Shown here: positions 10,451 through 30,115 of the stretch, piece by piece
Numbering within the stretch: position 1 is the first letter of the stretch
Layout of the letters: every line of letters begins with the position of its first letter
DNA from: an uncultured virus (IMG/VR IMGVR_UViG_2941446319_000001)
Lineage: Duplodnaviria > Heunggongvirae > Uroviricota > Caudoviricetes
DNA length: 34,747 nt
Virus record (IMG/VR): IMGVR_UViG_2941446319_000001
Reading direction: 5' to 3' (one strand)
Position numbers and translations under genes: made by a program
The notes under the pieces: model-generated
Told to the model about the DNA's origin: nothing
The model's database searches: none
What the model saw: only the letters and a program-made list of their open reading frames with translations

Positions 10451-10454
10451 CCGC

Positions 10455-11684: not shown

Positions 11685-12065
11685 CTACACAGGGAGCGGA
11701 TCGGCCCCTGGAGGCGTCAGCGTCGCTTCTGGGCCACTTCTCGGCCCATCCCCGCCCGGCGCGACCCCAGCCACATCGGCCCCACCGGACCCGATCGCGT
11801 TGAACAGCCGGTCCGCCGCCGCCCACGACGACAGCCCTTGCTCGCCCAGGACGGCCAGCTCGTCGAGCACCACCGCCTCGGCCGCCTCGTCCTCGACCGT
11901 GAACCGGTACGGGACCACGATCTTGACCGGGGCCTGCCCGTGCACCGACGCCCAGTCCAGCGGCGACGGCCCCGCGGGCTCCTGCGCCGTCTCGGTCGTT
12001 GAGGGGGCCGAGCTCCACAGCTCCGGCCAGTGATCCCACCCCCACCCGGGGAACGGCCACGTCAC
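11685..12065 (-). CDS. hypothetical protein
   Basis: GTG start overlapping the upstream stop (GTGA). Confidence 0.5.
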   Translation of the reverse strand: MTWPFPGWGWDHWPELWSSAPSTTETAQEPAGPSPLDWASVHGQAPVKIVVPYRFTVEDEAAEAVVLDELAVLGEQGLSSWAAADRLFNAIGSGGADVAGVAPGGDGPRSGPEATLTPPGADPLPV

Positions 12066-13477: not shown

Positions 13478-13650
13478 GCCTCCTCCTTCGGGTCGGCTGG
13501 TCCGGGGTCGGACAGCAGTTCGTCGAGCAGGCGGATCAGCTCGTTCAGGTCGCCCCATTCCGAGCCGCAGCAGCACACCTGCGAGGGCGGGCCCTCGAAC
13601 GGGTAGCAGCCGCCGCAGCTCGGGCACGGGTTGGTGGTGGTCGTGCTCAT
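13474..13650 (-). CDS. small Cys-rich protein (58 aa, not in the ORF track)
   Basis: MSTTTTNPCPSCGGCYPFEGPPSQVCCCG...; ATGA and GTGA overlaps on both sides. Confidence 0.55.
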   Translation of the reverse strand: MSTTTTNPCPSCGGCYPFEGPPSQVCCCGSEWGDLNELIRLLDELLSDPGPADPKEEA

Positions 13651-14204
13651 CGGCTGCCGACCCTCGAACGGATGCTCCAGTACTTCGCCTTAACCGGACC
13701 GTCCTTCTGGCACCAGACGACCTCGTCGTGCAGCAGCAGTGACCAGCCGCGATAGGGGAGCTGGCAGAGGTCTCCGACGCCAAGTTGTCCGAGTAGGCGG
13801 CAAACGAGACCCGGCATCTCCATGTCGTGTAGACCCATGAACGGTGACGGGCACATGAAGACTTTGAGACGCCCATATCCACGCCAGTAGACATGTGTGT
13901 AGTCGACGGCCTGAGCCATCCACGCGGTGAAATCCCGCGTGGTTGCCAGATCGGGGACCTTGAACTCCAGCCCGAAGACCGGCTCATCGTCCTTCCATTG
14001 AGAGTCGTCGATGGGACGGAGCACGGCGTCGATGCGGAGTTGCCTGCCCGAGCAGTGCGAGCCCCAGACTTCGCGCTCGACGTGGAACGACTGCGCCAGG
14101 TCCTCAAGCACCCGAGCGGCCAGTTCGGCCTCGCTCCACGCCGGCGGGGGAGCGATCCTAGAACGGAGGCGCATCGGGCGTGCCTCCGTTCGCCCACGGG
14201 TCAT
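13647..14204 (-). CDS. PD-(D/E)xK restriction-endonuclease-like protein
   Basis: RIDAVL...GLEFK...AQAVDY fits D...ExK...QxxxY. Confidence 0.6.
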   Translation of the reverse strand: MTRGRTEARPMRLRSRIAPPPAWSEAELAARVLEDLAQSFHVEREVWGSHCSGRQLRIDAVLRPIDDSQWKDDEPVFGLEFKVPDLATTRDFTAWMAQAVDYTHVYWRGYGRLKVFMCPSPFMGLHDMEMPGLVCRLLGQLGVGDLCQLPYRGWSLLLHDEVVWCQKDGPVKAKYWSIRSRVGSR

Positions 14205-14568
14205 CAGCCGTGCCGCCGTTGCTCGAACGCTCCGCGGTCTTCGGCGGCCAGCGCAGGTTCAAGCCGGCCGACTCCACCCGCACCTCGATACGGGAGTGCT
14301 TCTGGCCGTCCTTCTCCCAGCTCGACTGGAACGCCTGCCCAGACACGACCACCGCGGCGCCCTTGCGCAGGTTCTCGGTGACGTGCTCGGCGAACTGATC
14401 CCACGCGGTGCAGGTCCAGAACGTGGTGTCGACGTCCTCCCACTGGTCGCCGTTCTTGCGGCGGCGGGAGGTGACGACGGTGAAGCGGGCGATGGCTTTG
14501 CCGGTCTGGGTGAACTTCAGCTCGGGATCGTTGGCCATGCGGCCGGTGAGGGTGATGGGTGCGGACAT
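14158..14568 (-). CDS. ssb: single-stranded DNA-binding protein
   Basis: ITLTGRMANDPELKFT...FWTCTAW...ENLRKG; C-terminal DDPW...APPF. Confidence 0.95.
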   Translation of the reverse strand: MSAPITLTGRMANDPELKFTQTGKAIARFTVVTSRRRKNGDQWEDVDTTFWTCTAWDQFAEHVTENLRKGAAVVVSGQAFQSSWEKDGQKHSRIEVRVESAGLNLRWPPKTAERSSNGGTADDPWANGGTPDAPPF

Positions 14569-14572
14569 GGGG

Positions 14573-16177
14573 CTATGCGCTCCTTCGGTCGATGGAGTCC
14601 CAGCCGGGGGCGGGGACGAAATCGGGGACGACCTTCCAGGGCCAGTTGCCTTCGCCCCCGTAGGTGAGGCGGGTTGGCCAGTCACGGTCGTCTCGGGCGC
14701 CACGCCAGGGCTTGACGGCCACGGTTCGGCAGCGCTCGCCAGGCCGCTGGTCGGGGTCGTCGGGGGCGATTCCGAGGCCGAACTCGGGCCAGCGCAGCAG
14801 GAGGCTCGACCCGACTGGGCGGACGGAGCGGTCTTTCCCGCCGCCGGCGTTGCCGTGGCCTGCGTGGGCTTCGATGACCATCGCGCAGTCGGCCAGGACT
14901 CGCGCCTGGTCGAGCACGGCGACGGTGGCGCGGGCGGCTTCCTCGTCGTTGATGTTGCCTGCGTGCAGGCGGTAGAACGGGCCGATGAACAGCAGGTCCG
15001 GCTTGTGGGCCGTGACCCGTTCGAGCAGCCATGCGGCGTCGCCGGGGCGGAGCATGTCGATTCCCGCGGGCTTGTGGATGAGGCGCAGCGCGCCGTCCGG
15101 GACGCGATGCCCGAATTTGATCGACGAGGCGGCGAGCGGCCGGAACTTGCGGCGGGACTGCTGCTCGGAGTTCTCGCAGTCGATCAGCAGCACCCGCATG
15201 GGAGGGATGTCCGTCCACTTGAACGGGTGCATCCCCGCGGCGACCATGACGGCCATCTGACGAATGGCCATGCTCTTGCCGAGCCCTTCGAATCCCGTAA
15301 AGACGAGCCGGTCTCCGCGCTCCAGCAGGTTGGGCACCACCCAGTCGAAGTCTTCGTCGTCAACGGAGATGAACTCCCACAGGTCCGGCGCGAGATCAGG
15401 CTTGGCGGGCTCTTCGCTGGCCCAGATCTCCACCAGGTCCGGCAGCTTCTTGCCCGCCTGGAAGTGGTCTGTGGCGTCCTTGCCGACCGCCGGTTCCGCG
15501 ATGCGGATGGAGGCGGCGATCCCCGTGAGCGCGTCGCGCACCCGTCGGGCGTGCGCCTCGCCGGGGTTGTCCCGGTCGCAGATGATCGTGACGTCGGCGT
15601 CGCGGAACACCTCGTTGTACTCGGGCCGCCACTTGCCGGCGCCGCCAGGGTTGCACGTCGCGACGAGCCCTTGGCCTTCCAGCGTGTGGACGTCTTTCTC
15701 TCCTTCGGTGATGAAGATGACGTGGCCGTCGCGGATGCCTTCGATCACCCTGGGGAGGCGGTAGAGCGGGCGGCGGGTGTCGCCGAGCTTCCAGCTCCAG
15801 CCCTTCGGCCGGGACGGGTCGGGGATCCGGCAGGGGAACTGCTTGTCCGCGGTGCGCATCACCTGGAACAGCAGCTTGCCGTCTTCGTCCACGTAGTCGT
15901 AGATCGCAGTTGCCGGGCCGCGGGGCGTCCACTCGCCGCGCTCCTCGCGCTGGCCACGCGGCTTGCACAGGTCCTCCCAGGTGAGGCCGATCGCGTCGAG
16001 GATGGCGTCACGGTCGCATCCGGCGTGGCAGGTGAACACCACGGGGTGCTCCTTGCCGACGGCGAGCGAAAGGCTGGCGGTGCCGTCGTTGTGGGCGGGG
16101 CACCGGGCCATGAAGCTGCCGTTCTGGGAGCGGACCCCGTCCAGCTTGGGCAGGAGCATCTCGCGCAGGATGTCCAT
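14573..16177 (-). CDS. primase-helicase (Zn-binding + TOPRIM + RecA-like AAA_25 ATPase)
   Basis: CPAHND...CHAGC; ITEGEKD and CDRD (TOPRIM); GFEGLGKS Walker A. Confidence 0.9.
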   Translation of the reverse strand: MDILREMLLPKLDGVRSQNGSFMARCPAHNDGTASLSLAVGKEHPVVFTCHAGCDRDAILDAIGLTWEDLCKPRGQREERGEWTPRGPATAIYDYVDEDGKLLFQVMRTADKQFPCRIPDPSRPKGWSWKLGDTRRPLYRLPRVIEGIRDGHVIFITEGEKDVHTLEGQGLVATCNPGGAGKWRPEYNEVFRDADVTIICDRDNPGEAHARRVRDALTGIAASIRIAEPAVGKDATDHFQAGKKLPDLVEIWASEEPAKPDLAPDLWEFISVDDEDFDWVVPNLLERGDRLVFTGFEGLGKSMAIRQMAVMVAAGMHPFKWTDIPPMRVLLIDCENSEQQSRRKFRPLAASSIKFGHRVPDGALRLIHKPAGIDMLRPGDAAWLLERVTAHKPDLLFIGPFYRLHAGNINDEEAARATVAVLDQARVLADCAMVIEAHAGHGNAGGGKDRSVRPVGSSLLLRWPEFGLGIAPDDPDQRPGERCRTVAVKPWRGARDDRDWPTRLTYGGEGNWPWKVVPDFVPAPGWDSIDRRSA

Positions 16178-17013
16178 CAGTTCTCCCAGAACATGCCGAC
16201 GTTGGCGGGCCGATGAGTTTCAGCGTGGGTCAAGGGCTGGTCTTTCCAGCGCTCGCCGTTGAGCCAGGTGGACGGGTGGGCGATGAACTGGGGATCACGT
16301 GACCGGGTGGGGTCCATCCGGAACCGCTCGGCGCCAGCGATGATCTCTTCAGGGTCGACGTTGTCGTCCATCGCCTTGGCCCATGCCTTCTTGGCGTGGC
16401 CCTTGCCGACCTTGCGGGGGTAGGTCTCCCAGAATCGGGCGAAGCCGGGATCGTCATCTCCGACGCGGCGTGAGCCGCGTTTCCCCCTCTGGGGGGTAGG
16501 GGGGTTATTTCCCTGCTCCCTGCTCCCTGCTCCCTGCTCAGGGCCGAAGGTCTCCGGAACGTTCCCGCCGCTCTCGCGAGACTCTCCGGAGAGTGGGACT
16601 ACGACATCTGACTCGTCTTCGTCGTCGCAGCTCAGCATGTATGCCATGGCGAACGCGTCGTCGATTTCGTCCGGTGTCGGCCGGACGTAGCGAGGCTTTC
16701 CGGGGTGCGACACCTTCTGGTGCTCATCCCAGCTCGTGATGAACAGGAGAGCCCTTCCGGCGGCCTCGTAACGCACGATCAAACCCGCCTCGGAGAGTCT
16801 CCGGAGATCCTCCCGCGTTCTCACGAGAGCCTCCAGAGGGTCATCCTCAAGGGGCCAAATCGCAGCAGCGATGAGCCGCACGTTGTCGGCGGCCACTCCG
16901 TTGTCGTCCGCGTGCGTCCACAGGCCGATGAACGTCAGGCGAGCCGACATGGGCAGGGATGCGATCTTCTCCGACGTGAAGAAATCGGGCTTGATCGACC
17001 TGATGCGCGCCAT
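16177..17013 (-). CDS. phage replication initiator / replisome organiser
   Basis: MARIRSIKPDFF N-terminus; FARFWETYPRKVGK...HPSTWLNGERW C-terminus; directly upstream of the primase-helicase. Confidence 0.85.
   Translation of the reverse strand: MARIRSIKPDFFTSEKIASLPMSARLTFIGLWTHADDNGVAADNVRLIAAAIWPLEDDPLEALVRTREDLRRLSEAGLIVRYEAAGRALLFITSWDEHQKVSHPGKPRYVRPTPDEIDDAFAMAYMLSCDDEDESDVVVPLSGESRESGGNVPETFGPEQGAGSREQGNNPPTPQRGKRGSRRVGDDDPGFARFWETYPRKVGKGHAKKAWAKAMDDNVDPEEIIAGAERFRMDPTRSRDPQFIAHPSTWLNGERWKDQPLTHAETHRPANVGMFWEN
16511..16538 (+). repeat. (CCCTGCT)x4 tandem repeat inside the initiator gene; putative origin iterons
   Basis: Four exact 7-mers; TCTCCGGA motifs nearby at ~16551, ~16583 and ~16798. 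Confidence 0.55.
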
Positions 17014-19933: not shown

Positions 19934-20294
19934 CGGCCGCCTCCGCTCTGGCGAGAGCGTCAGCGACGGTGTAGCCGCGGCACGCAAGATGTGGAGCGAG
20001 ACGGCCAGCAAGAGCGCACGCCGCCTTCTCGTCGAACCGGTGCCGGGCCAGCCAGTCGTCACGGGCGGCGTTGTCTGCGGCGATCTCCTCGTCGGTGACC
20101 GGCTCCTTGTCGCCGGGCGGCCCCCACGAGCGGTTGCCTTCGGCGTCGAAACAGGCACCGCGCAGGGTGACCGCCCAACGACCTTCGCCGCGATACTCGA
20201 CGATCAGCGTGAACATGTCAGCGTCCGGGTGCATCTCGGGCAGACAGGACACCTGGAAGCGGGTGATACGCACCTCGGGCTTGGGAATTGTCAC
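19926..20294 (-). CDS. hypothetical phage protein
   Basis: VEYRGEGRWAV...RHRFD. Confidence 0.7.
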   Translation of the reverse strand: MTIPKPEVRITRFQVSCLPEMHPDADMFTLIVEYRGEGRWAVTLRGACFDAEGNRSWGPPGDKEPVTDEEIAADNAARDDWLARHRFDEKAACALAGRLAPHLACRGYTVADALARAEAADA

Positions 20295-20299
20295 GGGTG

Positions 20300-20434
20300 C
20301 TATCCGCCTCTCTTGGGCTCGTCGAGAAGGTCAGGGTTGGGCCTGGGCACTCGGCACACGCGGGCGTGATCCTCGGCGGAGATGCCGTCGAGCTCGGCGA
20401 CGACGCAGCAGTACGGGCGCAGGTCCCCAGTCAT
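20300..20434 (-). CDS. small hypothetical protein (44 aa)
   Basis: MTGDLRPYCC...; ATGA overlap with the methyltransferase stop. Confidence 0.45.
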   Translation of the reverse strand: MTGDLRPYCCVVAELDGISAEDHARVCRVPRPNPDLLDEPKRGG

Positions 20435-21579
20435 GCGGCCACCTGCTCTCGCTTGTCTACGGCGACGATGTGGCGGGCGACCTGCTCCACGACAGGGACG
20501 GCGACCGCGTTGCCTGTCTGCCGGCACCGGGCGGCGTCGGACTGGCCTGCGGTCCAACCGTCCGGAAAGCCCTGCAAGCGCTCACGTTCAAGTGGGGTTA
20601 GCTGCCGTACGGCCCAGCCGATCTGCACTGCGGTCGCCTGAGTCGTGGTCAGCGCGGTCGGGGTGGGGCCGTAGCCGAGCCGCATGTCGCCGCCGGTCTG
20701 CGGGTTGAACGCCATCGGCGGTGCTGCTGCGATACGTACCGGGAGCAGCGTGGACGTGGCGTCAGAGTCGGGGCCCTTCGCGTCGCGGGCCTTAACCGTC
20801 GTAGCGATCAGGTGGCCGGCTTGGGCGGCGTTGTCGTCCGGGCCGCCACCGCCTCCAACGCTGTTAGCAGTGAGGGCGGCAACGACCTGCCCCGACGCTC
20901 GGCCCGGCGTAGGATTCCCTGCGCCGCCTTCGGGCTCAAGTAGTACTTGGACGGGACCTCGAGCGTCGGCTCCAGCACGTCCGACAATGATGACTCGACG
21001 GCGCTGCTGAGGGACTCCGTGGTACTGAGCGTCCAGCACTCGGTAGGCGAACCCATACCCGCGGTCTCCCAGCGACCCGAGGACGAGACCCATGGCGCCA
21101 CCGTGCGCTCGCATGCATCCTCCGGGGCAGGATCCGCCGGCGAGCTGGTGGGGTTCGGCGCATCCGTCGTGCTGCCCGGTACCGGGACAGGGGCAGACCG
21201 CTGACAGGAGGCCAGGGACGTTTTCGAGGACGACCCAGGCGGGGCGAAGGTCAGCCAAGAGCCGGTCGATCTCCCAGTAGAGGCCAGATCGTGTCCCTTC
21301 ACCCATGCCGCGGCGACGTCCTGCCACGGAGAGGTCCTGGCAGGGGAAACCTCCGGTGAGGATTCCTCGCTCTGGAACAAATCCGGCTGCTCGTAGCTGG
21401 TCACCGGTCACCTCTCGCACGTCTTCGAACAGGGTCACGTCGGGGAAGCGGCGGGCGAGGACGGAGCGGGCGGCGGGGTCGATCTCGACTGCGGCGACCA
21501 CTTTGACGCCGGCTCGCTGTAGCGCCAGGTCGAAGCCCCCGATACCGGCGAACAGGGAGACTGCGGTGAGGTCAGTCAC
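20431..21579 (-). CDS. DNA (cytosine-5)-methyltransferase
   Basis: Motifs SLFAGIGG (I), GGFPCQD (IV), ENV (VI), VPQQRRR (VIII), RLQGFPD (IX), GNAV (X); GTG start after GGAGGAGG. Confidence 0.95.
   Translation of the reverse strand: MTDLTAVSLFAGIGGFDLALQRAGVKVVAAVEIDPAARSVLARRFPDVTLFEDVREVTGDQLRAAGFVPERGILTGGFPCQDLSVAGRRRGMGEGTRSGLYWEIDRLLADLRPAWVVLENVPGLLSAVCPCPGTGQHDGCAEPHQLAGGSCPGGCMRAHGGAMGLVLGSLGDRGYGFAYRVLDAQYHGVPQQRRRVIIVGRAGADARGPVQVLLEPEGGAGNPTPGRASGQVVAALTANSVGGGGGPDDNAAQAGHLIATTVKARDAKGPDSDATSTLLPVRIAAAPPMAFNPQTGGDMRLGYGPTPTALTTTQATAVQIGWAVRQLTPLERERLQGFPDGWTAGQSDAARCRQTGNAVAVPVVEQVARHIVAVDKREQVAA
20808..21404 (-). CDS. nested alternative-frame ORF inside the methyltransferase gene (M.EcoHK31I beta-like)
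   Basis: 198 aa, Ser-rich, ending YYLSPKAAQGILRRAERRGRSLPPSLLTAL; SD-like GAGGT shortly before the GTG. Confidence 0.6.
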   Translation of the reverse strand: MTSYEQPDLFQSEESSPEVSPARTSPWQDVAAAWVKGHDLASTGRSTGSWLTFAPPGSSSKTSLASCQRSAPVPVPGSTTDAPNPTSSPADPAPEDACERTVAPWVSSSGRWETAGMGSPTECWTLSTTESLSSAVESSLSDVLEPTLEVPSKYYLSPKAAQGILRRAERRGRSLPPSLLTALEAVAARTTTPPKPAT

Positions 21580-21793
21580 GGCCCTCCTCCTCGGGGAACA
21601 CGTCGTGTATGTCGTCGTCAGCCAGCAGGGCGGCCCACAGCCGATCCCAGGCGGGATCGTCAGGCGGAGGAACAGCCACACGCTTCCGGCGGTCTTGGCG
21701 GAGCGACCACGCCCAAGCGGCGGCGCACCAGCAGAAGGCGGCGACCACGAGGGCGCCGATCCCGGCGAAGACATTGCGGATCAGGTCAGCCAC
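21572..21793 (-). CDS. small membrane protein
   Basis: Hydrophobic stretch VFAGIGALVVAAFCWCAAAWAWSL. Confidence 0.6.
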   Translation of the reverse strand: MADLIRNVFAGIGALVVAAFCWCAAAWAWSLRQDRRKRVAVPPPDDPAWDRLWAALLADDDIHDVFPEEEGRD

Positions 21794-22022
21794 GGTCGCC
21801 TCGCTCCGCGTCCCACCGCATGAAGTCGGGGACATCGTCGGTGTTCTCGGGCCGGTAGGTGGTGGGCTCGTAGGCGGCCCACCACCCTGCCGCCGCACGG
21901 TCGGCGGGCTCTGACACCTCTCCCAAGGGGCGGGCCAGGTAGCCGATCAGGACCCCGCCGGTGAGGAAGAACAGGCACAGCAGGCCGACGAGAAGGAGCT
22001 CAACCTGGTCAGGGGTGATCAC
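21786..22022 (-). CDS. small membrane protein
   Basis: Hydrophobic stretch LLLVGLLCLFFLTGGVLIGYL. Confidence 0.6.
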   Translation of the reverse strand: MITPDQVELLLVGLLCLFFLTGGVLIGYLARPLGEVSEPADRAAAGWWAAYEPTTYRPENTDDVPDFMRWDAERGDRG

Positions 22023-22447
22023 GTCTGCCCCATCCGCTTGGTGAGGAGGGAGACGACCTCGCCCGGGGTGAGGCTCTCCACCTGGGCGCGCAGTTGGGTG
22101 TTCTCCCGCTCCAGGTCTGCGATGTACACCCGGTACTCGGCTGCTCTCTCGCTCCATGCAGCGGTGAGCCGGTCAGCGGCGCGAGCTTTGGCGGCCCGGT
22201 CACGTCCCCAGAACCACCACCACAGGGCGTTGGCGGAGACGAAGGCCACCACGCCGGCGACCGCGATGACGAGGTCGCCCTTGCTGGCACCGGCCGCCGC
22301 GAGAGCACGCACGGCGAGCGTCATCAGCGTCGCGCCGACGATCGCGCCCCCGACCACTGCGACGGCGCCGATGGCCACCGGGGGAACGCGGGGCACCCAC
22401 CGCTTCACGACGGCCCGGATCTTGGCGAGGTCAGCCACGGGGCTCAC
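22019..22447 (-). CDS. membrane protein with a coiled-coil tail
   Basis: Two hydrophobic segments followed by IADLERENTQLRAQV. Confidence 0.7.
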   Translation of the reverse strand: MSPVADLAKIRAVVKRWVPRVPPVAIGAVAVVGGAIVGATLMTLAVRALAAAGASKGDLVIAVAGVVAFVSANALWWWFWGRDRAAKARAADRLTAAWSERAAEYRVYIADLERENTQLRAQVESLTPGEVVSLLTKRMGQT

Positions 22448-23090
22448 CGCCCTCGTCGGCGTCGAGGTTGTCGAGCCAGTCCGCCTCGGACGCGAACTCC
22501 GTGATCACCTTCATGGCGGCGGCGGGGTCTCCGGCGTTGGCCAGCCGGACTGCGCGGCGGATCTCCAGGGCCACCACGTCGATGACCCGGGCGAGATCCC
22601 GGGCCGCCTGTGCGCCGCCCTGGAGCTGGCCACCGAGCAGTTCCACGGCGGCCTTGAGCCGGTCCACCTCGGCCGCAGGCGTGACCATGTCCAGCGCGTT
22701 CACCCACGGGTCGTTGCCGGAGGAGTGCTCGCCGATCACCTCGATCGGGGCAACCGCAGCCGCGAACCTGTCGAGCAGTGCGTGGAAGTTGTCGCGCTCG
22801 TCGATCAGGTTGCCGGTCGCCTGCTCTTCCCGCTCGGCATCGAGGCGGAGGCGCTTGTTCTCGGCCTTGAGGCGGGCCACCTCGCGCTCCCAGTCGCCGA
22901 TAGCCACCCGGTTGAGCCGGTCGTGGGTGACGATCTGAGCGTTGAGGCGATCCACCTCGGCGAGCAGGTCCTTGCGTGCGGATTCCAGGGCCCACACGTC
23001 CGGGTTGTACGGGGCGTCGGCGGAGCAGGAGTCCACGCGGAGGTCCCGGATCTCGGCGAGACGCTGCTCTGGGGTGATCGGCTCAGACAT
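22431..23090 (-). CDS. coiled-coil hypothetical protein
   Basis: DLLAEVDRL and EVARLKAENKRL heptads. Confidence 0.75.
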   Translation of the reverse strand: MSEPITPEQRLAEIRDLRVDSCSADAPYNPDVWALESARKDLLAEVDRLNAQIVTHDRLNRVAIGDWEREVARLKAENKRLRLDAEREEQATGNLIDERDNFHALLDRFAAAVAPIEVIGEHSSGNDPWVNALDMVTPAAEVDRLKAAVELLGGQLQGGAQAARDLARVIDVVALEIRRAVRLANAGDPAAAMKVITEFASEADWLDNLDADEGGEPRG

Positions 23091-23445
23091 CGGCCTGCCC
23101 GCCGTCTTGCTCTGCCTGAGCCGGATTCACGGCGCCGAGGTAGAGGGCCAGCAGATGCCGGGCCACCTCATGCGTGGGCTGTGCGAGCGCCTGCCACATG
23201 ACCCCTTCAGCGGCCTCCAGGCGTGCCTTGAGCTGCTCCACCTCTGCCGGGTCCGGGACGGTCTCACCCTCGACCACGACCGCACAGAAGCGCTCAATCT
23301 GGGAGGGCTTGCCCTTGGGCGTGAACCCGATCCGCAGGACAGCGCCCTCACAGGCCACGTCCACGAAGCCGGCCAACGCCCGGTTCTCGAAGACCTCGCT
23401 GCCGCGCAGGTGCTCGGCGATCCTCTCCGGGGTGATGTCGTTCAT
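23083..23445 (-). CDS. hypothetical protein
   Basis: MNDITPERIAEH...; ATGA overlap. Confidence 0.65.
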   Translation of the reverse strand: MNDITPERIAEHLRGSEVFENRALAGFVDVACEGAVLRIGFTPKGKPSQIERFCAVVVEGETVPDPAEVEQLKARLEAAEGVMWQALAQPTHEVARHLLALYLGAVNPAQAEQDGGQADV

Positions 23446-23639
23446 GCGGAACGCTCCAGGGAGGTGTAGTCGTGGGCGGCCAGCGGGAACATGGCCAGCG
23501 GTGTGGTGCGCGGGGTGGTGAAGTCGTCGAAGAGAGCCGGGCGGATCTTCGCCAGGCACGACCAGCCGGTGTACGAGCCAGCGCAGTGACGGGAAGGGAC
23601 CAGGCCGAGCAGGCGGGCCACCCGATGTAAGGCCGTCAC
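23442..23639 (-). CDS. hypothetical protein
   Basis: GTG start overlapping the upstream stop. Confidence 0.45.
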   Translation of the reverse strand: MTALHRVARLLGLVPSRHCAGSYTGWSCLAKIRPALFDDFTTPRTTPLAMFPLAAHDYTSLERSA

Positions 23640-24040
23640 CGGGACACGCCCTCTCTGGCGTCCTGGTGGTCGTGCAGCTCGCCGAGGCGCTCCAGGTTCG
23701 CGTCCGGGTCCGGCGCCAGGTCCGGGACCGCCGTGAACGATCCCTCCGGCGAGGCGAACCCGTCCCACGACGCCGGGTACGGCTCCCCACGCGGGGTCAC
23801 CGACGCGCCGCCGATCACGTCGCCGCGCATCTTCGCCTGACGCCGGCCGATCGTCTCGTGCAGGTCCGTCATTTCCTCGTCGACGCTGCCGACCTCCGCC
23901 ATGAGCCGGACGCGCTCGGCTCGCAGCAGTTCCAGTTCCTGCTGGTCGCGGTCGTTCAGCTTCCGCAGGCGGGTGATGCCGTTCTCCGTGAGAGTGCGCA
24001 TCTGCTGGGCGTCGGCGATGGTCGTGTACGGCTGAGCCAT
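23636..24040 (-). CDS. coiled-coil hypothetical protein
   Basis: MAQPYTTIADAQQ...; SD AGGAGA. Confidence 0.7.
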   Translation of the reverse strand: MAQPYTTIADAQQMRTLTENGITRLRKLNDRDQQELELLRAERVRLMAEVGSVDEEMTDLHETIGRRQAKMRGDVIGGASVTPRGEPYPASWDGFASPEGSFTAVPDLAPDPDANLERLGELHDHQDAREGVSR

Positions 24041-24110
24041 TGGTGTTCTCCTGAGTCTGGTGTGGTCGGGGAAGGCCCGGCGTGCCCACAAGGGCGGGCA
24101 CGCGGGCGGG

Positions 24111-24668
24111 CTAAGGGGTCAAAGAATCGGAGGGGGTGGCCGACGACTTGCCGTGGCGCGTCAGCAGGTCTTCGAGGTGGTCCAAGCGCTCGGACATCTC
24201 CGCGAAGTCAGTGGAGGTCTCCCGCCTGAGGGTCTTGATCTCGCTCTGGCGCTGCTCGTCGCGCTGCTCCAGGCGGCGGATCATCTGCGAGTGCTGGCGG
24301 AGATTCATCTCCAGCCCGTCCATCCGCTTGCGCTCGTCAGCCGTAAGGGCGGACCTGTTGGCGCTCGCGGCCTTGTCGACGGCCTTGCCGAGCTGGCGGC
24401 GGGACTTCTTGTGGTGGTGGCGGGCGAGCGCTTCGTGCTCGCGGGCCTCGATGACGCGATATCCCTCATTGCGGACGCTGACGACGGTCCTGTGGTCCTC
24501 GATCTCAAGCTGCCGGATGGCCCGGTAGATGGGGCTGCGGTCCTCGCGGAAGTCGCGCTTCAGGATGGCGTCGAGCTTCTCGTAGGTGAGGACCTTGCCG
24601 ACTTCCAGCGCGGCGAGTGCGTCGTACACGAGGACCCACTGGGCCCTGTCGCCCTTGATTTCAAACAT
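24111..24668 (-). CDS. wHTH + coiled-coil protein immediately downstream of the repeat array (putative accessory protein)
   Basis: MFEIKGD...LTYEKLDAIL...IYRAIRQLE...VRNEGYRV is winged-helix-like, followed by a long heptad region; SD GGAG at 24675-24678. Confidence 0.75.
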   Translation of the reverse strand: MFEIKGDRAQWVLVYDALAALEVGKVLTYEKLDAILKRDFREDRSPIYRAIRQLEIEDHRTVVSVRNEGYRVIEAREHEALARHHHKKSRRQLGKAVDKAASANRSALTADERKRMDGLEMNLRQHSQMIRRLEQRDEQRQSEIKTLRRETSTDFAEMSERLDHLEDLLTRHGKSSATPSDSLTP

Positions 24669-24693
24669 GCGAAACTCCAGGTAGAAGTGAAGA

Positions 24694-25885
24694 TCCCTGC
24701 CTTGCCGCGCCCATGGCGGCCTTGGACGGCCCAGCCACGCCTTGCCGCACCCAGATGAGCGGGCGCCGGAGAGTCGAACTCCAGCGATGAGCCGAACGCC
24801 CTGGTGAAACCCCTGCCTTGCCTCTCCCTGCCTTGCCGCGACATGCCGGGCCGAGCCATGCCGTGCTCGTGGGTGGCGCGGAGTCGAACCGCGCAGAAGA
24901 CCGTCCACCCGAATCCATGCCTCGCCAGGCCGTGCCAAGCCCGGCCTGAACCAGCCACGCCTCTGCACGCCCCACCAAGCCGCACACCCAATCGGGGGCG
25001 GTCCAGGGCTGAGGTGCTAGACCCCAACCCCAGACCGTCACCGGCACCACGCCCTGCCCGGCCGAACAAAACCGGACCATGCCCTGGCGCGCCACGCCCT
25101 GCGCCGCCGCACCAAACCGGACCACGCCTTGCCGTGCCGTGCGCTGTTGCTGCCCGGGGGCAGCGGAGGGCCGCGAGACAAGCTCGCGACCGACCGCCGT
25201 CACCGGCCCAAACCTCACCCAGCCCGACCCGGCCAAGCCGTTCCGCGCCCGAGATCGGCACGCCATGCCAAGCCAAGCCCGCTCGGAAGCGGGGGAAGAC
25301 CACGGAGCTAGTCCGTGATCGACCTCCGTCGCCGGAACCTTGCCCGGCCTCGCCACGCCCTGCCTAGCCCGTCCGCGCCCTGCCGAGTCGAGCCGAACCG
25401 AACCCCGAATTGGGGGCGGCGCGGGAGTCGAACCCGCGCTACGACCATTCGCCCACCCACGCCATGCCTTGCCATGCGGTGCCTTGCCCCTGCTTGCCAC
25501 GCCTTGCCCGGCCAAGCCCCAGAGCGCGGGTGCCGAGGGCTCGAACCTCGGAGCCTGCCAGCCACCCTCCAAGCCTTGCCAGACCCCGCCGAGCCCAGCC
25601 ATGCCGCTCCCGGCCCTGCCTTCGGCCCTGCCATGATGCGCGGGCGTCGGGGCCTCGAACCCCGAAGGCTGCCAGTCGCCCTCCATGCCACGCCGAGCCT
25701 TGCCGAACCGAACCACGCCTTGCCATGCCCTACCGGTCCTTGCCGCTCCGAGAGCGCGGATGGCCGGGGAGTCGAACCCCAGCTTGCGACCATCCATCCG
25801 TCCCTGCCCTGTCACGCCTCGCCGGGTCGAGCCCGGCCATGCAGCACCCAGACCGGCCAGGCCAAGCCCAACCACGCCCCGCCTT
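24694..25885 (-). ncRNA. array of ten (GGY-NN)n guide-like RNA units separated by nine hairpins (VIPR-like vrRNA array)
   Basis: 5-nt period with GGC/GGT anchors and variable dinucleotides. Tracts at 25799-25883, 25682-25749, 25568-25632, 25459-25518, 25335-25404, 25207-25281, 25044-25143, 24914-24986, 24810-24867 and 24694-24751. Hairpins lie between them. Confidence 0.88.
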
Positions 25886-25918
25886 GACAGGCTCTGAACA
25901 GTCCGGGAAGTAGGCATG

Positions 25919-26539
25919 TCAGATCTCGCTGACCTCAGTCGAGAACCTGCCGTACATGGTCCGGAAGTCGCCGAGTCCTTCCATCTCGCCGGCCAGGCGG
26001 GCGACCTCGCGGAACTCGTCGTACTCGATCGCCTTCGGGTCGACGATGACGTCCGCCTCGACCAGCCAGTCACGGAAGATCGGGCGGCACCGGTCGACCT
26101 TGTTCCGCTGGACCGTGACCGGGCGGATGTCGACGAACTCGGACTCGCCGCCGCCCCACAGGCCCTCGACGTCGCGCGGCCCCTTGTAGATGAGCGGCAG
26201 CATGAAGTCGGCGATGACCACGCCGCGCTCGATCTTCTTGCCCGCCTTGATCAGCCGCGCCCCGCCGATCAGCGACCGGAACAGGTTCTGGCCGGGCATG
26301 TACGGGCCGAGCTGCGGATCGAAGTACAGGGAGCCTTCGAACTCGACGCGGGCGACCTCAAGGCGGTCCTCGTCGGTCTTGGTCCGCTTGGAGTTGAGCG
26401 CCTTCAGCTTCTTCGCGTACGGGTTGAGCGGGCTCGCAAGCTGCACGTTATGGAGCAGCAGCGGGCGGGTGCCCGTGCAGGTCATGCGGATCTTCAAGGA
26501 CTTGCCCTTCGTTTCGTTGTCCACTTTGTTCGCGAACAT
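25919..26539 (-). CDS. stand-alone RAMP/Cas7-like RNA-binding protein (Vipr-like); alternative start TTG 26497
   Basis: N-terminal strand with TGTRPLLLH, central PYMPGQNLFRSL and C-terminal glycine loop GEMEGLGDFRTMYGRF give a RAMP (RRM) architecture. No other cas genes nearby. Confidence 0.8.
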   Translation of the reverse strand: MFANKVDNETKGKSLKIRMTCTGTRPLLLHNVQLASPLNPYAKKLKALNSKRTKTDEDRLEVARVEFEGSLYFDPQLGPYMPGQNLFRSLIGGARLIKAGKKIERGVVIADFMLPLIYKGPRDVEGLWGGGESEFVDIRPVTVQRNKVDRCRPIFRDWLVEADVIVDPKAIEYDEFREVARLAGEMEGLGDFRTMYGRFSTEVSEI

Positions 26540-26622
26540 TGTTAACGGTAGGAGTATGACCTAGAGGTGTCAACTCTGTTCGCGCTATTCGTTCGCGCAT
26601 ACAGTTGTGAGACCATGCCGTT
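26527..26622. promoter_or_regulatory. promoter of the RAMP cassette and operator repeats
   Basis: Minus TTGACA(26573-26568)-N17-TACCGT(26550-26545)-N5-ATG. Palindrome TGTTCGCGAACA at 26527-26538, plus GTTCGCG copies at 26578 and 26591. Confidence 0.8.
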
Positions 26623-26808
26623 ATGGCCAGAGAGGAAATCCCAGAACTGCGGACGCTGCGTGACGACTACGACCGCGCGCGAGCGGCTCTGTTCGCCGGC
26701 ATCCGCAAGTACCTGGCCGAAGGGCGAGGCCCATCCGAAATCGGCCGTAGCGTCGACTGGACCCGCGAGTACATCGCGAAGATCCGCGACGGCAAGGTCA
26801 AGGACTAG
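26623..26808 (+). CDS. small HTH repressor divergent from the RAMP gene
   Basis: GRGPSEIGRSVDWTREYIAKIRDG HTH. Confidence 0.75.
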   Translation: MAREEIPELRTLRDDYDRARAALFAGIRKYLAEGRGPSEIGRSVDWTREYIAKIRDGKVKD

Positions 26809-26906
26809 CGCCACCTGGCTCTCCTCCTCTCGGATGTATGGGGTACTGGGTAGGTCCCGTCGCTGTCCCGACCCCCGATGGACGGGACAGCGACGGGAGA
26901 GGCGGG

Positions 26907-27311
26907 CTAGAAGGGCGCTTCCGGGTCGATCTCCAGCCACGGCTGCAACACGTGGAGGCGGTAGAAGACCTTGCAGCCCGGCGTCTTGTCGGCGTGGTCG
27001 AGGGCCTTAGACGCTGACTGGAAGGGGATGATGAGCCCCGCCTTGTCCGGGTGGCCGCTGGCGACCACGATCTCCATGCGGGTCTCCAGCGCCTCGAACT
27101 CGGCGATCCGCTCGCGGGCCTCGCGAAGCTCCGTCGCCATGCGGGAGACGACCGTCACCAGTTCCTCGGCCGCTTTGCCGCTGTCGTCGTCGCTGCCGCC
27201 GTAGTAGACGCGGATCGACTCCTCTACCGCGTCCAGGTCTAGCGGCGGTTCCTGCTCGGGCTCGTCGGGCTCTCGGTCGTTGGCCTCGTACAGGTCGTCT
27301 ACGTGGGTCAC
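26907..27311 (-). CDS. hypothetical protein
   Basis: Acidic N-terminus, central coiled coil, C-terminal PF. Confidence 0.7.
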   Translation of the reverse strand: MTHVDDLYEANDREPDEPEQEPPLDLDAVEESIRVYYGGSDDDSGKAAEELVTVVSRMATELREARERIAEFEALETRMEIVVASGHPDKAGLIIPFQSASKALDHADKTPGCKVFYRLHVLQPWLEIDPEAPF

Positions 27312-27330
27312 GGTCGTTCCCTTCAGGGGG

Positions 27331-27531
27331 TCAGGGGGTTTCGATGTCAGATGGGGAGCCGTACCGGGCGAGATCGGCCGTCATCGCGGCGATGCACGCG
27401 AGGCAGGCTCCGCACGGCGTCTCGTCCGGCTGGCGCTTGGTGCATCCGACCGCGCCGGCCGAGCAGTCGTGGTCTACGGGGAGCCAGGCGTCACACCAGT
27501 CGCAGTAGCGCATGTCCTCGACGACGCTCAC
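27331..27531 (-). CDS. small Cys-rich protein
   Basis: YCDWCDAW...CGACLAC; GTGA overlap. Confidence 0.55.
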   Translation of the reverse strand: MSVVEDMRYCDWCDAWLPVDHDCSAGAVGCTKRQPDETPCGACLACIAAMTADLARYGSPSDIETP

Positions 27532-28178
27532 GACGCCGTCACCTCGATCAGCCAGAACGGCGACGAGCCGCAGGAGCACGTGTAAGGGCCTTCGGCGGGA
27601 GTCGGGCGGCCGGGGCACTGGGCGTGCCCGTACCGCTCCACCGCCTCAGCGAAGGCAGCGCCGGCCACCACCGGGATGGGGCGTTTGCCGTCCTGGTGCG
27701 ACCCCTCAGGGGCGGGCCGGAACCCGCCCCTGTCGTCCAGCAGCACCCAGCCCAGACGGGCGTGCTTGACCGGCACCTCCCACGGACGGGCAACGCCCTC
27801 GCGCAGCTTGTAGCCGAGCCGCTCCGCCGCAGCGGGCGCCACCGCATCCGTGAGCCTGTGGCACGGCCGGCACGCCCACTGGACGTTCGACGGCGCGTTC
27901 GACCACCGCTTCGACGTGCCGCCGATCTTCTTCCCCTCGCGGTGCGCCGAGTCCGTCCCAGCCGCCGCGCCGCGGCACGCCAGGCCGATCTCACACAGGC
28001 CCTCCGAGCGGCGGCGGATGATGTCCCGCACCCTCGCCGGGACACCCTTGGGCGCCGACTGCTTCAGCGTGGACGTCCGCTTCTTCGGGTCGTTGGCCCG
28101 CTTGAAGCCGGCACCGCGAGACATCTCCGTCTTCGCCTTCAGCGGCGTCTTCCGCTGCGGCATCGGCGACCTCTTCAT
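27528..28178 (-). CDS. HNH-like endonuclease
   Basis: RSEGLCEIGLAC...AHR...SNVQWACRPCH. Confidence 0.8.
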   Translation of the reverse strand: MKRSPMPQRKTPLKAKTEMSRGAGFKRANDPKKRTSTLKQSAPKGVPARVRDIIRRRSEGLCEIGLACRGAAAGTDSAHREGKKIGGTSKRWSNAPSNVQWACRPCHRLTDAVAPAAAERLGYKLREGVARPWEVPVKHARLGWVLLDDRGGFRPAPEGSHQDGKRPIPVVAGAAFAEAVERYGHAQCPGRPTPAEGPYTCSCGSSPFWLIEVTAS

Positions 28179-28615
28179 CGGCCACCGCCCCGGTGGTTGA
28201 TGCTCTGTCCAGACTGGGCGTTGTTATTGAGCGACTGGAACAGGCTGATCTGGTCCTTGATCTTCCAGGCGTAGCTCGTCGCGATGTTCAGCAGAACCTC
28301 GGCGTCGTGAAGTGCTTCCCACTCCGTCGCGGTGCTCCTGGCGACCCAGGCGTCCCGTTCTGCCGCGGTGACCGTCCCGACCGTCCGGCCCACCCTTGGG
28401 CAGTCCGGCGACATCAGGAGCCTCGTCTCGGCCTTCTTAAGCGACTTCTGGCACTCGGCGACCTTGCGAGTCGCCTCAGCTACGGCGTCGGTTGAGGCTT
28501 CCAGCGCGTTGTTGATGTGCTGCAGCAGGGCGTCGGTCTGGTCGGGTCTCAGCGGGGTGCCTGGAGCGGTCAGGACGAGTCCGCCGCTCGGCGTGCGCTG
28601 GTAAGCCTCACTCAC
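28175..28615 (-). CDS. helical hypothetical protein
   Basis: VSEAYQRTP...TAAERDAWV; overlap chain. Confidence 0.7.
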   Translation of the reverse strand: MSEAYQRTPSGGLVLTAPGTPLRPDQTDALLQHINNALEASTDAVAEATRKVAECQKSLKKAETRLLMSPDCPRVGRTVGTVTAAERDAWVARSTATEWEALHDAEVLLNIATSYAWKIKDQISLFQSLNNNAQSGQSINHRGGGR

Positions 28616-29207
28616 CGGGCTCACCCGCCTCGATGGCGGAGCGCAGGACGTCGGCCAGCACGCCGGCCAGATCGCCGCGGCGCCACGCATCCATGACCGC
28701 TTCCGACGCGCCCTCGCACGGCGTGTACGCGAACGCCCCCGACCGGGGCGCGGTGGAGGACTCCAGCACCTTCACCAGTTCGCCAGTCGCCCGGTTGAGG
28801 ACCTGCCCCTTGGCGTTCGCGCTCTTGAGGACCTTCGCCCGGTAGGCGGGCTGGATGGTCTTCTGCAGCAGCTCGGGCCGGTTCTCCCGCACCCACGCCA
28901 GCAGCTCCGGATCCGACTCGGCGCCAGGCCGCAGCCCTTCGGCGATCTCGCCGGGCGCCATCTCCTCCACCAGGCTGAACAGGGTCGGCTCGTACACCTT
29001 GACGGTGGTCTTGCCGACCTTGATGGCGATCGACCCGAGCGGAGTTCCGTCGTCCAGCGTGACGTCTATCGACTTCGTGCCGGACTCCTGGTGGGCGGCG
29101 GCGAACGCAGCCTCGGCCTGGCTGCGGGTCATGTCCGCCGCGGCCTTGACCTCGTCGCTGATGAACCGCAGGGCGGCGACACGCTGACCGTGCAGGCGCG
29201 GGTTCAC
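28608..29207 (-). CDS. hypothetical protein of the recombination module
   Basis: GTG overlapping the ATPase stop; VLNRATGELV motif. Confidence 0.7.
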   Translation of the reverse strand: MNPRLHGQRVAALRFISDEVKAAADMTRSQAEAAFAAAHQESGTKSIDVTLDDGTPLGSIAIKVGKTTVKVYEPTLFSLVEEMAPGEIAEGLRPGAESDPELLAWVRENRPELLQKTIQPAYRAKVLKSANAKGQVLNRATGELVKVLESSTAPRSGAFAYTPCEGASEAVMDAWRRGDLAGVLADVLRSAIEAGEPGE

Positions 29208-30115
29208 GCGGCATCCCCGCTCACTTCGGCGGGCTTCGGCTTGGACAGTTCCATCCACCGGCGGCGGGCCAGCTCGCCGAGCTGGGTGGCGTCGCCGTGC
29301 TCGTCGATGACCTGGGCGCCGAACAAGCCACGCTTGCGGATCTCCCCACCGGCCGCGGCGACGTCATCGAGGGTGGCGTACTGGTCGAGCAGCAGGTCCC
29401 GGAAGTGCAGAGCGTCCGGGCTAGGCTTGCCGTCACCGAGCCACGCGGCGATCTCCTGCGCGAACTCCGCGCCCGGCTTCGGCACTACCCGGCCCGCGAT
29501 CGTGCGGGCCCTCGACTTGGAGATGACCAGCGTGTTCTCGTGGTCCAGGTCTCCGACAATGTCGAACTCGTACTCGATGCCTTCGCGCTGCTCCGGCTTG
29601 AGGCCAACCTTGCGCGGCACCTTCCTGCCGCGCTGGTCCTCCTCGATGACGTAGTCCGTCTTGGACCGCATCGTGACGATGACGTGGCCCGGATACGACA
29701 CGAGCGCGTCGATCATCTGGCGTTCCTGCGGTCGGGCTTCCTTCCACCCTCCGAAGGAGTTGCCGCCGTAGCCGCGCTTGGCGGCCGAGTCGACCTGTTC
29801 CAGCATGCCGCCGGTCCCGGACCAGAAGTGCGTCAGCGAGTCGATGACCGCCACGTCGTGCCCCTGGGAGGCGGCCACGGCCAGCACCTGGCAGAGGGTT
29901 GCCGGCTCGAACGACTGCAGGTTGAGCCGGTTAAACGAGAACTCGTCGGCGTACTTGCTGGCGCTGCCCCGCTCGGTGTCGATGACGGCGACCTTCTCCC
30001 CCAGTACGGTGGCGATGGTCAGCGCGGTGTAGGTCTTCCCGGACCCGGTCGGGCCGGTGAGCGCGACGCGCGCTTTGGCCTCATCCTTGGTCGCAGGCTC
30101 GAACGTGAAGTTCAC
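29204..30115 (-). CDS. Sak4-like AAA_24 ATPase (ssDNA annealing / recombination)
   Basis: GPTGSGKT Walker A; IDTERGSA; VIDSLTHFW; EQREGIEYEFD. Confidence 0.9.
   Translation of the reverse strand: MNFTFEPATKDEAKARVALTGPTGSGKTYTALTIATVLGEKVAVIDTERGSASKYADEFSFNRLNLQSFEPATLCQVLAVAASQGHDVAVIDSLTHFWSGTGGMLEQVDSAAKRGYGGNSFGGWKEARPQERQMIDALVSYPGHVIVTMRSKTDYVIEEDQRGRKVPRKVGLKPEQREGIEYEFDIVGDLDHENTLVISKSRARTIAGRVVPKPGAEFAQEIAAWLGDGKPSPDALHFRDLLLDQYATLDDVAAAGGEIRKRGLFGAQVIDEHGDATQLGELARRRWMELSKPKPAEVSGDAA

Follow-up and report, generated by a model that had tools for sequence, protein, structure and literature searches.

A probable VIPR locus in an actinomycete prophage, with tRNA-like modules between its guide RNAs and candidate guides against recombinase motifs

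Introduction

VIPR (Viral Interference Programmable Repeat) systems were published in April 2026 and, according to the text of the discovery paper, combine a lone ancestral RAMP protein (Vipr) with guide RNAs named vrRNAs, mostly in phages and prophages (bioRxiv 10.64898/2026.04.26.720920). A vrRNA is described there as a run of 9-16 YNNGG units with an invariant, structured tail at its 3' end, and the systems usually include one accessory gene (vap). Seven types are defined in the same text, with array styles that include plain, staggered, hammerhead-interspersed and single (10.64898/2026.04.26.720920). The targets, again as stated in that text, are double-stranded DNA read as NN-x-NN-x, a '1-nt-skip rule' in which the skipped base is usually a codon wobble position (10.64898/2026.04.26.720920). 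For the Vipr protein of SUSP1 it was shown experimentally that GGY is gripped and NN displayed (texts of 10.64898/2026.04.26.720920 and 10.64898/2026.04.26.720927), and in the SUSP1 structures a 3' pseudoknot caps the filament (text of 10.64898/2026.04.26.720927). VIPR arrays have also been recovered by a language model, as the text of another VIPR paper reports. The locus presented here occupies positions 24,111 to 26,808 of a 34,747-nucleotide stretch of DNA from an uncultured virus of the Caudoviricetes (IMG/VR record IMGVR_UViG_2941446319_000001). The whole stretch is referred to below as the window and all positions are counted from its first letter; the host is a 68%-GC actinomycete with a genome of 10.7 Mb.

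All parts of the locus are on the minus strand, in the order possible promoter, vipr, a gap of 35 nt, ten GGYNN tracts with nine spacers, and a vap1-like gene. Judged from sequence comparison, the locus is very probably a genuine prophage-borne VIPR system, nearest to the published type II (SUSP1/P. fulva), with tails of its own and guides directed at recombinases. A system of this kind is already published, and the novelty lies in the variant features. These variant aspects are the guide-RNA 3' module, in which tRNA-like and hairpin tails stand where SUSP1 has a pseudoknot, and the position of the array. Tails of the tRNA-like form and recombinase matches were not found in the text of the VIPR papers. 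More precisely, tRNA is not mentioned in their main text or in the supplement of the discovery paper, the figures and data tables lying outside this check and possibly showing such tails; the text of that supplement does not mention Streptomyces or Streptosporang either, and its tables and data files could list the clade.

A preliminary description of this DNA, made from its letters and a list of open reading frames (ORFs), had likened it to the VIPR systems, and the likeness proved right: the homology of Vipr to PDB entry 36pp, the pentamer array and the vap1-like gene all point to them. It had also reported that CRISPR repeats and cas genes were missing, and none appeared in the 29 ORFs scanned or in Rfam, in a search for cas genes that was not exhaustive. 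A direct-repeat array of 25-40 nt is absent, the period of the array being 5 nt, and neither a CRISPR family in Rfam nor a cas gene among the scanned ORFs was encountered. A megablast search with positions 20000-30000 found nothing similar among 50,697 phage records.

Results

The Vipr protein was matched by phmmer to chain D of PDB entry 36pp ('SUSP1 Vipr protein') with an E value of 5.2e-34, residues 18-203 of the query being aligned to residues 5-189 of the chain. Its ORF falls in phrog_4652 (function unknown, E 2e-51), no Pfam family was found for it, and its identity to the Vipr copies of Felixounavirus is about 39-41%. An AlphaFold 2 (AF2) model built from 23 relatives reached a predicted local distance difference test score (pLDDT) of 87.5. 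The best PDB matches of this model in Foldseek were Csm3/Cas7 subunits of type III and type VII CRISPR complexes (E 1e-5), in keeping with the RAMP fold proposed earlier; the Csm3 matches (9ash_F, 6ifl_F and 6ifn_E) have a template modeling (TM) score of about 0.5 and an identity of 10-14%. The G-loop-like segment G-L-G-D-F-R aligns to G-V-G-D-W-R of SUSP1 and is invariant in the 23 relatives. The gene most likely starts at TTG 26497, because the relatives are 192 aa long, their ATG aligns at this position in the two related loci L001 and L002, and similarity is lost upstream; the start at 26539 given in the preliminary description was consequently abandoned. Both vipr and vap are intact ORFs with a coding-type GC content at third codon positions (GC3) of 0.95 and 0.91, respectively.

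The tracts were delimited with a simple GGYNN pentamer parser applied to the minus strand (Table 1). Their number, ten, agrees with the preliminary description; their length, given there as about 11-20 units, is in fact 10-19. The alternation of a GGC or GGT anchor with a variable dinucleotide in a 5-nt phase stands out clearly, since 79 GGY-GGY pairs are found at a distance of +5 against 9.5±2.9 (maximum 20) in 500 dinucleotide-preserving shuffles. The count is 75 at +10 and 3-11 at other lags, and the Fourier peak of the array lies at 4.98-5.03 nt. In the 10.7-Mb genome, GGYNN runs of at least 10 units are confined to these tracts, with six borderline 9-unit runs elsewhere. Drifted anchors (GAC, GTC, TGC, CGC and GGA) are present with the phase kept, as had been noticed earlier, and the slip reported at unit 3 was confirmed, tract 3 being preceded by two additional units (25632-25623) and AA, which shift the phase by +2.

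The ends of the tracts were analysed in a set of 149 clade tracts of at least 8 units. The NN positions of the inner units are nearly uniform, each of the 16 dinucleotides accounting for 3-8%. In the second-last unit, NN is AA, AG or GA in 52% of the tracts; in the last unit it is AG, AA, GA or AT in 70%, and the three bases after the tract are GGA or GGG in 70%. The last unit is likewise restricted in the SUSP1-like phage wV8, being GGTAT in 3 of 4 tracts and GGTAA in the fourth, with GGG or GGA directly after the three GGTAT units. On this basis, the tract end, consisting of two purine-biased units and GG-purine, probably stops the Vipr filament, and the last two units look like a handle and not like guide. 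The GG-purine is a plausible filament stop because the Y pocket of Vipr excludes purines, according to a legend of the structure paper (10.64898/2026.04.26.720927).

Nine of the ten tracts carry a tail, in the form of structured spacers of 44-64 nt; the tenth runs straight into the ribosome-binding site of the downstream vap1-like gene. The preliminary description had the tracts separated by hairpins, and the spacers are structured indeed, although a more specific account can be given for six of the nine (tails 1-4, 8 and 9), which are tRNA-like acceptor/T-arm modules containing GGTTCGAnnCC. The remaining tails (5-7) form a class, designated B, that is also present in loci L001, L002 and L043. 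A set of tRNA-like tails was assembled from hairpins of the form 5 bp/TTCRAnn/5 bp located within 70 nt after a tract, in the window and in Vipr-linked loci. After removal of a false positive in a coding region (L058), 62 distinct tails were retained, of which the window contributed 6 and 19 related loci the other 56. They align nearly gap-free when anchored on the loop. Each begins with a 5-nt 5' strand and an 11-nt linker with an invariant GG, continues with a 6-bp stem closing a 7-nt loop, and ends with a 5-nt strand abutting the T-stem; a discriminator-like purine and usually CGC follow, the next tract beginning 5-6 nt on.

Across the 62 tails, the outer (acceptor) stem is 95.2% paired and the inner (T) stem 98.9% paired. 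Double-sided changes were counted in 152 cells, against 31.5±4.6 after shuffling (0 of 500 shuffles reach 152) and 9-33 when the partners were slid by 1-3 columns; covariation across this set supports the tRNA-like fold. The bases that are invariant or more than 90% conserved are the GG of the linker and G-T-T-C-(G)-A...C of the loop, which we take to correspond to G18/G19, G53, T54, Psi55, C56, R57, A58 and C61 of tRNA. In one subclass, covariation links two bases of the linker to the final two of the loop (T-loop 59-60), these positions being 67.5% paired over all tails; in another, reading of the alignment by eye shows a UNCG/GNRA-like mini-hairpin in the linker. The tails are not tRNA genes, because a GG linker alone takes the place of the D and anticodon arms and the Rfam tRNA model misses them. 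Rfam scans gave no ribozyme signature in the module. An origin of the tails as copies of the 3' halves of host tRNAs was considered and rejected, as the best matches to 82 other ARAGORN calls reach 17-20 of 25 positions and the sole 25/25 match in the host is the array's own false ARAGORN call.

A covariance model of the tail, R1, recovered only the six array copies in its own genome (150 candidates scored). In 43 loci outside its training it found three matches in Gordonia phage MakoManhole and one in the same-family genome G007, and none in the more distant of these loci, including that of the E. coli phage wV8. The same tail pattern was recognised by eye in Mycobacterium phage LittleE. The tails of wV8 are AT-rich and were read as H-type pseudoknots, as published for SUSP1. 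In a 55%-identical relative (L003:4650-5069), the tRNA-like tail gives way to plain hairpins of 11 bp, which have a CCTCGAAA-type loop and ACGC after them; this hairpin looks like a linker-less 'minihelix' form of the module, its helix having the same length as 5+6 bp. As a separate observation, the 92-nt 'tRNA-Ala(ggc)' called by ARAGORN at 24869-24960 (-) consists of tail 8 and part of tract 8, and similar calls were obtained at L002:5108-5191 and L030:3126-3223. VIPR tails may thus be mistaken by annotation pipelines for tRNA genes or pseudogenes.

Targets were sought by scanning the host's own genome with all ten guides, on both strands and with skips of 0, 1, 2 or 3 nt. The 3-nt skip serves as a positive control, the array being all that it recovers. 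With the 1-nt-skip rule, guide 5 scores 25/28 at C24:73366-73406 of this genome (G000), its first 12 units matching at 24/24 positions, and the next best score is 21. The same guide stays at 20 or below under the other skip rules, and 40 permutations of its unit order reach 20-22. The matched site encodes GVGRSTLYRALEDD, the HTH_7 (helix-turn-helix) domain of a serine recombinase in the resolvase family, and the skipped bases all fall on third codon positions. When the 12-unit pattern was searched in 185,579 species genomes, it was present in 5, all of them Nonomuraea or Sphaerisporangium, and all five sites encode GRSTLYRALEDD; the reversed unit order was found in 0 genomes. On the same contig (locus L024), a 2499-aa Rhs/YD-repeat ORF at 9387-16886 (-) lies directly downstream of the matched resolvase gene, which may belong to a mobile toxin cassette.

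The second match is that of guide 10, which scores 19/22 and has its first nine units fully matched (18/18). The site lies in a Phage_integrase ORF of the related Streptosporangium locus, some 3 kb away from its vipr homolog, and corresponds to the catalytic box of tyrosine integrases. None of 500 permutations reaches 19, and the best score in the host's own genome is 17/22. The 9-unit pattern occurs in 12 viral contigs, 12 of 12 encoding AHR[FL]RHTFA with the skips on wobble positions, and two of these contigs reach 21/22; the reversed unit order matches 2 viral contigs. The preliminary description had suggested a search with gapped NNxNNx patterns against shuffled controls, and guides 5 and 10 do exceed their permutations; the other eight yielded no convincing target. 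Taken together, the single skip rule that works, the wobble skips, the restriction to one family and the clean permutations form the pattern given in the discovery text for real targets, and the matches of guides 5 and 10 are very probably of this kind. They also fit a conflict between elements.

The Vipr family comprises 284 proteins at E≤1e-3, the few with a named source coming from actinomycetes. Its distribution is sporadic: a sample of 400 other genomes of the order contained Vipr in 3, and 68 genomes of the same genus in 0. The gene order vipr-array-vap recurs in locus L001 of a Streptosporangium genome, whose Vipr is 88% identical, and in the viral contigs L002 and L003; at least 2 same-strand tracts are present in 59 of the 107 Vipr-linked loci fetched. 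Mycobacterium phage LittleE (L133, 1669-3440) and Gordonia phage MakoManhole (L109, 1694-3160) possess vipr, a vap-like gene, GGYNN tracts and tRNA-like tails. In both phages these parts are annotated as hypothetical or left unannotated, and the LittleE system is placed between tail genes.

Table 1. Features of the VIPR locus in the window
Feature	Coordinates	Strand	Remarks
Promoter-like boxes	26545..26573	(-)	TTGACA (26573-26568), 17-nt spacer, TACCGT (26550-26545); by eye, upstream of vipr, tentative
vipr gene	25919..26497	(-)	192 aa from TTG 26497; ORF open to ATG 26539
vrRNA tract 1	25804..25883	(-)	16 GGYNN units
Tail 1	25745..25803	(-)	tRNA-like: acceptor stem, GG linker, T-arm; covariance model R1 match
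vrRNA tract 2	25685..25744	(-)	12 units
Tail 2	25621..25684	(-)	tRNA-like, R1 match; last 12 nt (25632-25621) are two extra units + AA
vrRNA tract 3	25571..25620	(-)	10 units
Tail 3	25519..25570	(-)	tRNA-like; R1 match
vrRNA tract 4	25449..25518	(-)	14 parsed units; last two overlap 5' strand of tail acceptor stem
Tail 4	25405..25448	(-)	tRNA-like; R1 match
vrRNA tract 5	25335..25404	(-)	14 units; guide 5, serine-recombinase HTH match
Tail 5	25280..25334	(-)	class B: long interrupted hairpin, CGGYGACGG... start
vrRNA tract 6	25200..25279	(-)	16 units; two consecutive non-GGY units inside
Tail 6	25139..25199	(-)	class B hairpin
vrRNA tract 7	25044..25138	(-)	19 units
Tail 7	24982..25043	(-)	class B-like long hairpin
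vrRNA tract 8	24917..24981	(-)	13 units
Tail 8	24863..24916	(-)	tRNA-like; R1 match
vrRNA tract 9	24813..24862	(-)	10 units
Tail 9	24752..24812	(-)	tRNA-like; R1 match
vrRNA tract 10	24697..24751	(-)	11 units, without structured tail; guide 10, integrase-box AHRFRHTFA match
vap1-like accessory gene	24111..24671	(-)	186 aa; N-terminal winged-helix-like topology and long helices

The product of the accessory gene was related by BLASTP to that of the gene after vipr in the SUSP1-like phage wV8 (E 1e-5) and to a 'DNA binding protein' encoded after vipr in Gordonia phage MakoManhole (E 1e-11); it also belongs to phrog_5926 (E 2e-9). Its AF2 model (pLDDT 78) displays the succession H-E-H-H-E-E, then helices at residues 76-103 and 111-172. 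No Foldseek match of this model was obtained at E≤0.001, the weak best rows being mostly winged helix-turn-helix regulators. The gene had been described earlier as a winged helix-turn-helix gene: it is regarded as vap1-like on the wV8 and MakoManhole homologies, and the topology and sub-threshold Foldseek rows point weakly to a winged helix.

Upstream of vipr, the octamer TGTTCGCG or a near-copy of it occurs three times within 26500-26600, on both strands, between the vipr start and a divergent small ORF, and may represent a candidate repressor operator. The divergent ORF (26623-26808 (+), 61 aa) contains an HTH-looking stretch, GPSEIGRSVDWTREYIAKIR, and has no Pfam or PHROG match; it may regulate the locus. 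The following ORF (26907-27311) has no Pfam match. HNH genes are common in phages. One of them, at 27528-28178 (-) (phrog_740, E 3e-20), lies on the strand of vipr, about 1 kb upstream of that gene, and an HNH gene is also found two genes after the vap of MakoManhole. Nuclease-bearing VIPR types with HNH-containing vap genes have been published.

According to an ORF profile scan, the neighbours of the locus in the window are a primase/helicase, a replication initiator, WhiB, the HNH endonuclease and a Sak4-like protein. Because phage replication-type genes surround the locus, the window was interpreted as the early region of a prophage. A genuine tRNA is present at 2557-2631 (-) (Rfam, 58.5 bits), for which ARAGORN gives an odd 4-base anticodon loop call, and a 471-aa ORF without Pfam or PHROG match adjoins it at 2652-4067. 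The pair may correspond to the prophage end and its integrase.

Discussion

The operation of the locus can be pictured as follows. The vipr gene, the ten-vrRNA array (25883-24697) and the vap1-like gene would probably be contained in one transcript. By homology with SUSP1, Vipr protomers would polymerise along each GGYNN tract until the two purine-biased units and the GG-purine end the filament. The tRNA-like tail would then probably act to cap the 3' end, to signal processing by host tRNA enzymes, or in both ways; if the cut fell just behind the discriminator, the upstream guide would keep the tail and the next guide would begin with a short CGCA leader. At least two of the guides would be aimed against other elements, at conserved motifs of their recombinases.

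Bacterial RNase P and RNase Z recognise an acceptor/T-arm helix with an elbow-like GG and a discriminator, as established for minihelix substrates, and the tail module sits exactly where a ten-guide transcript needs cutting. The tails are read as both cap and cutting mark because hammerheads occupy that position in other VIPR arrays and engineers put tRNAs between guide RNAs (gRNAs). That they mark sites of processing by host enzymes is nevertheless given a little less than an even chance. The wider proposal, namely that actinophage VIPR arrays are natural tRNA-guide arrays, diced by RNase Z, RNase P or both, capped by their tails, stopped by GG-purine and carrying guides against protein motifs, is put forward more tentatively still. 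Some guides would here be written against protein motifs and not against genes, because the code skips wobble bases.

A number of observations weigh against this picture. The sigma-70 scan returned no consensus promoter (0 sites), and the promoter-like boxes are not conserved in L001 and L002. The promoter of the preliminary description thus stands as TTGACA and TACCGT boxes seen by eye and was not recovered by the consensus scan; a terminator scan gave a single terminator-like site, inside vap and on the wrong strand. The tail set suffers from a selection bias, the tails having been picked by at least 4 of 5 T-stem pairs, and only the sixth pair of that stem and the acceptor stem are free of it. 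The resemblance to tRNA is partial, as D-stem, anticodon arm and CCA are lacking (CGC is found instead) and the coaxial helix counts 5+6 = 11 bp, against 7+5 = 12 bp in tRNA. The tRNA model of Rfam does not match the tails, the gathering-threshold scan finding only the genuine tRNA (2558-2631); the permissive rows for the array, tRNA-Sec with 20.9 bits against 47 and mascRNA with 17.5 against 42.5, are both sub-threshold. Several sub-threshold rows of miRNA families in the permissive scan were taken as noise. ARAGORN calls one of the six tails here and two more in the 19 related loci, three pseudo-tRNAs in total. Finally, an RNase P cut at the acceptor 5' end would separate the guide from its tail, which is awkward for a cap and speaks in favour of cutting on the 3' side or of protection by Vipr.

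On the side of the guides, the mismatches of both guide 5 and guide 10 fall in the last two units, whose status of 'handle' is an interpretation, and no convincing target emerged for eight of the ten guides. With guide 1 (12 of its 16 units searched), 0 viral contigs were matched. Guide 2 (10 units) also matched 0 viral contigs and a single genome, an Acidobacteriota metagenome-assembled genome, where about one match is expected by chance. Guide 8 (11 units) matched 0 viral contigs and 0 genomes, and guide 7 (17 units, at most 3 mismatches) 0 of 391 family genomes; guides 3, 6 and 9 gave no outlier in the own genome and the fetched loci. Two viral matches of guide 4 (10 units) were discarded, both being in the same gene on 32%-GC contigs, which is implausible for this host. 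The database counts of the two successful guides partly reflect motif abundance, because both match very conserved motifs, and each database control is a single permuted pattern.

The strongest alternative, with a substantial but minority share of the probability, is that the tRNA-like tails are purely structural 3' caps or handles for Vipr nucleation, like the SUSP1 pseudoknot, the units being released by other nucleases or transcribed from internal promoters. The SUSP1 pseudoknot stays on the mature vrRNA and the subunits near it were resolved first, as the text of the structure paper relates (10.64898/2026.04.26.720927). The covariation between linker and T-loop 59-60 in one tail subclass would be a pseudoknot-like contact of the same sort, three tails that are not tRNA-like occupy the same position in the same array, and the missing CCA and the shorter helix also suit a structural role. 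Against it, the T-loop and the linker GG are invariant at just those positions on which tRNA-processing enzymes and the tRNA elbow rely. The purine and the conserved CGC directly after the acceptor 3' strand, with the next tract about 5-6 nt on, provide the spacing expected of a cut site. Dedicated cleavage modules, in the form of hammerheads, are moreover carried by published VIPR arrays (text of 10.64898/2026.04.26.720920).

It is unlikely that the matches of guides 5 and 10 are coincidental or secondary, in which case the true targets would be phages not yet sampled and the patterns would encode common motifs by chance. The eight guides without a match, the conservation of both matched motifs, the loss of the last two units in both cases and the one permuted control per database would be accounted for in this way. 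The permutations are clean, however, with 0/40 and 0/500 reaching the observed scores, and only the 1-nt-skip rule produces the guide 5 outlier; the exact matches of this guide come from no family other than that of the host. In every match the skipped bases also fall on wobble positions, as the discovery text reports for real targets (10.64898/2026.04.26.720920).

Far less probable is a decayed or orphan array, unexpressed or acting as a decoy for the Vipr of other phages. Several anchors have drifted, tract 6 contains two consecutive non-GGY units, and solo and anti-VIPR vrRNAs have been described, with solo or decoy vrRNAs reported for SUSP1 satellites (text of 10.64898/2026.10.15.759431). 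Internal degeneracy is nevertheless frequent in functional vrRNAs, according to the discovery text (10.64898/2026.04.26.720920), and decay is hard to reconcile with intact, coding-type vipr and vap genes, a gene order kept in relatives and compensatory changes that maintain the tail stems. As for a protein-coding region or a low-complexity repeat devoid of RNA function, the long open frame that spans the array (24661-26073, 470 aa) has a flat GC content over codon positions (0.72/0.72/0.70, against 0.64/0.40/0.95 in the flanking genes), for which reason the array is considered non-coding and translation as a conserved protein, envisaged in the preliminary description, is discarded; a 5-nt period is further incompatible with keeping a reading frame, covarying RNA stems punctuate the tracts and an array adjoins a Vipr homolog in dozens of loci, leaving this explanation a negligible chance.

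The main contribution of the locus is to extend VIPR to a high-GC actinomycete prophage and to cultivable actinophages, MakoManhole and LittleE, which are usable for experiments. Two testable ideas emerge from it: the use of host tRNA enzymes as the dicer of an array, and the targeting of recombinases at the motif level. If the first is true, the tRNA-like tail suggests that a multi-guide VIPR transcript can mature with neither a Cas6-like enzyme nor a ribozyme. The tail would then be a natural precedent for the tRNA-gRNA arrays of genome engineering, and a compact host-processed scaffold for the production of many VIPR guides from one promoter. If the second is true, a single guide could silence whole families of rival temperate elements. 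Guides against recombinase motifs would show that wobble skipping permits the targeting of competitors at the level of conserved amino acids, a broad-spectrum exclusion.

Comparison with known systems

The Csm3/Cas7 backbone subunits of CRISPR complexes share with Vipr a RAMP fold and polymerisation along a guide RNA. In contrast with type III systems, no other cas genes were found here among the ORFs scanned and a repeat-spacer array is absent, the period is 5 nt instead of 6, and the published VIPR target is DNA recognised by gapped pairing.

The tRNA-like module has counterparts in several settings. An acceptor stem and T-arm also act as a mark for tRNA-end enzymes in mascRNA (MALAT1 3' end, RF01684) and in minihelices. 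The likeness to mascRNA is one of shape only, because tails 1 and 2 score 17.5 and 15.6 bits with RF01684, far below its gathering score of 42.5; mascRNA is, besides, eukaryotic. Closer in layout are the engineered polycistronic tRNA-gRNA arrays of multiplex CRISPR (e.g. PMC13032600), where a guide, a tRNA-shaped module and another guide follow each other for release by RNase P and RNase Z. Those arrays are man-made and use complete tRNAs with Cas9-type guides, whereas the modules described here are natural, have no anticodon or D-stem and may stay on the guide. Among VIPR systems, hammerhead ribozymes are located between the vrRNAs in types I and V (legend of Fig. S19, 10.64898/2026.04.26.720920). 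These hammerhead-interspersed arrays have in common with the present one a conserved structured module between vrRNAs, presumably for cutting the array. Hammerheads cleave themselves, while the module found here would need host tRNA-processing enzymes for a cleavage that we infer.

The closest known systems are those of type II, a proximity judged from the nearest solved relative and from vap homology. The locus shares with SUSP1 and P. fulva a Vipr homolog, GGY/NN tracts, a structured 3' tail, a vap1-like gene and a phage or prophage setting. Its candidate targets obey the 1-nt-skip rule with wobble skips, as in systems of the SUSP1 type, and the last unit of its tracts is constrained, as in the SUSP1-like phage wV8. 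It differs from SUSP1 and wV8 in its tails, which form a nested acceptor/T-arm mimic of tRNA or a long hairpin and not an H-type pseudoknot. It differs from type II in SUSP1, furthermore, in the coexistence of two tail classes in one array, in its 68%-GC actinomycete host and in the position of the array, which is inserted between vipr and vap instead of following vap.

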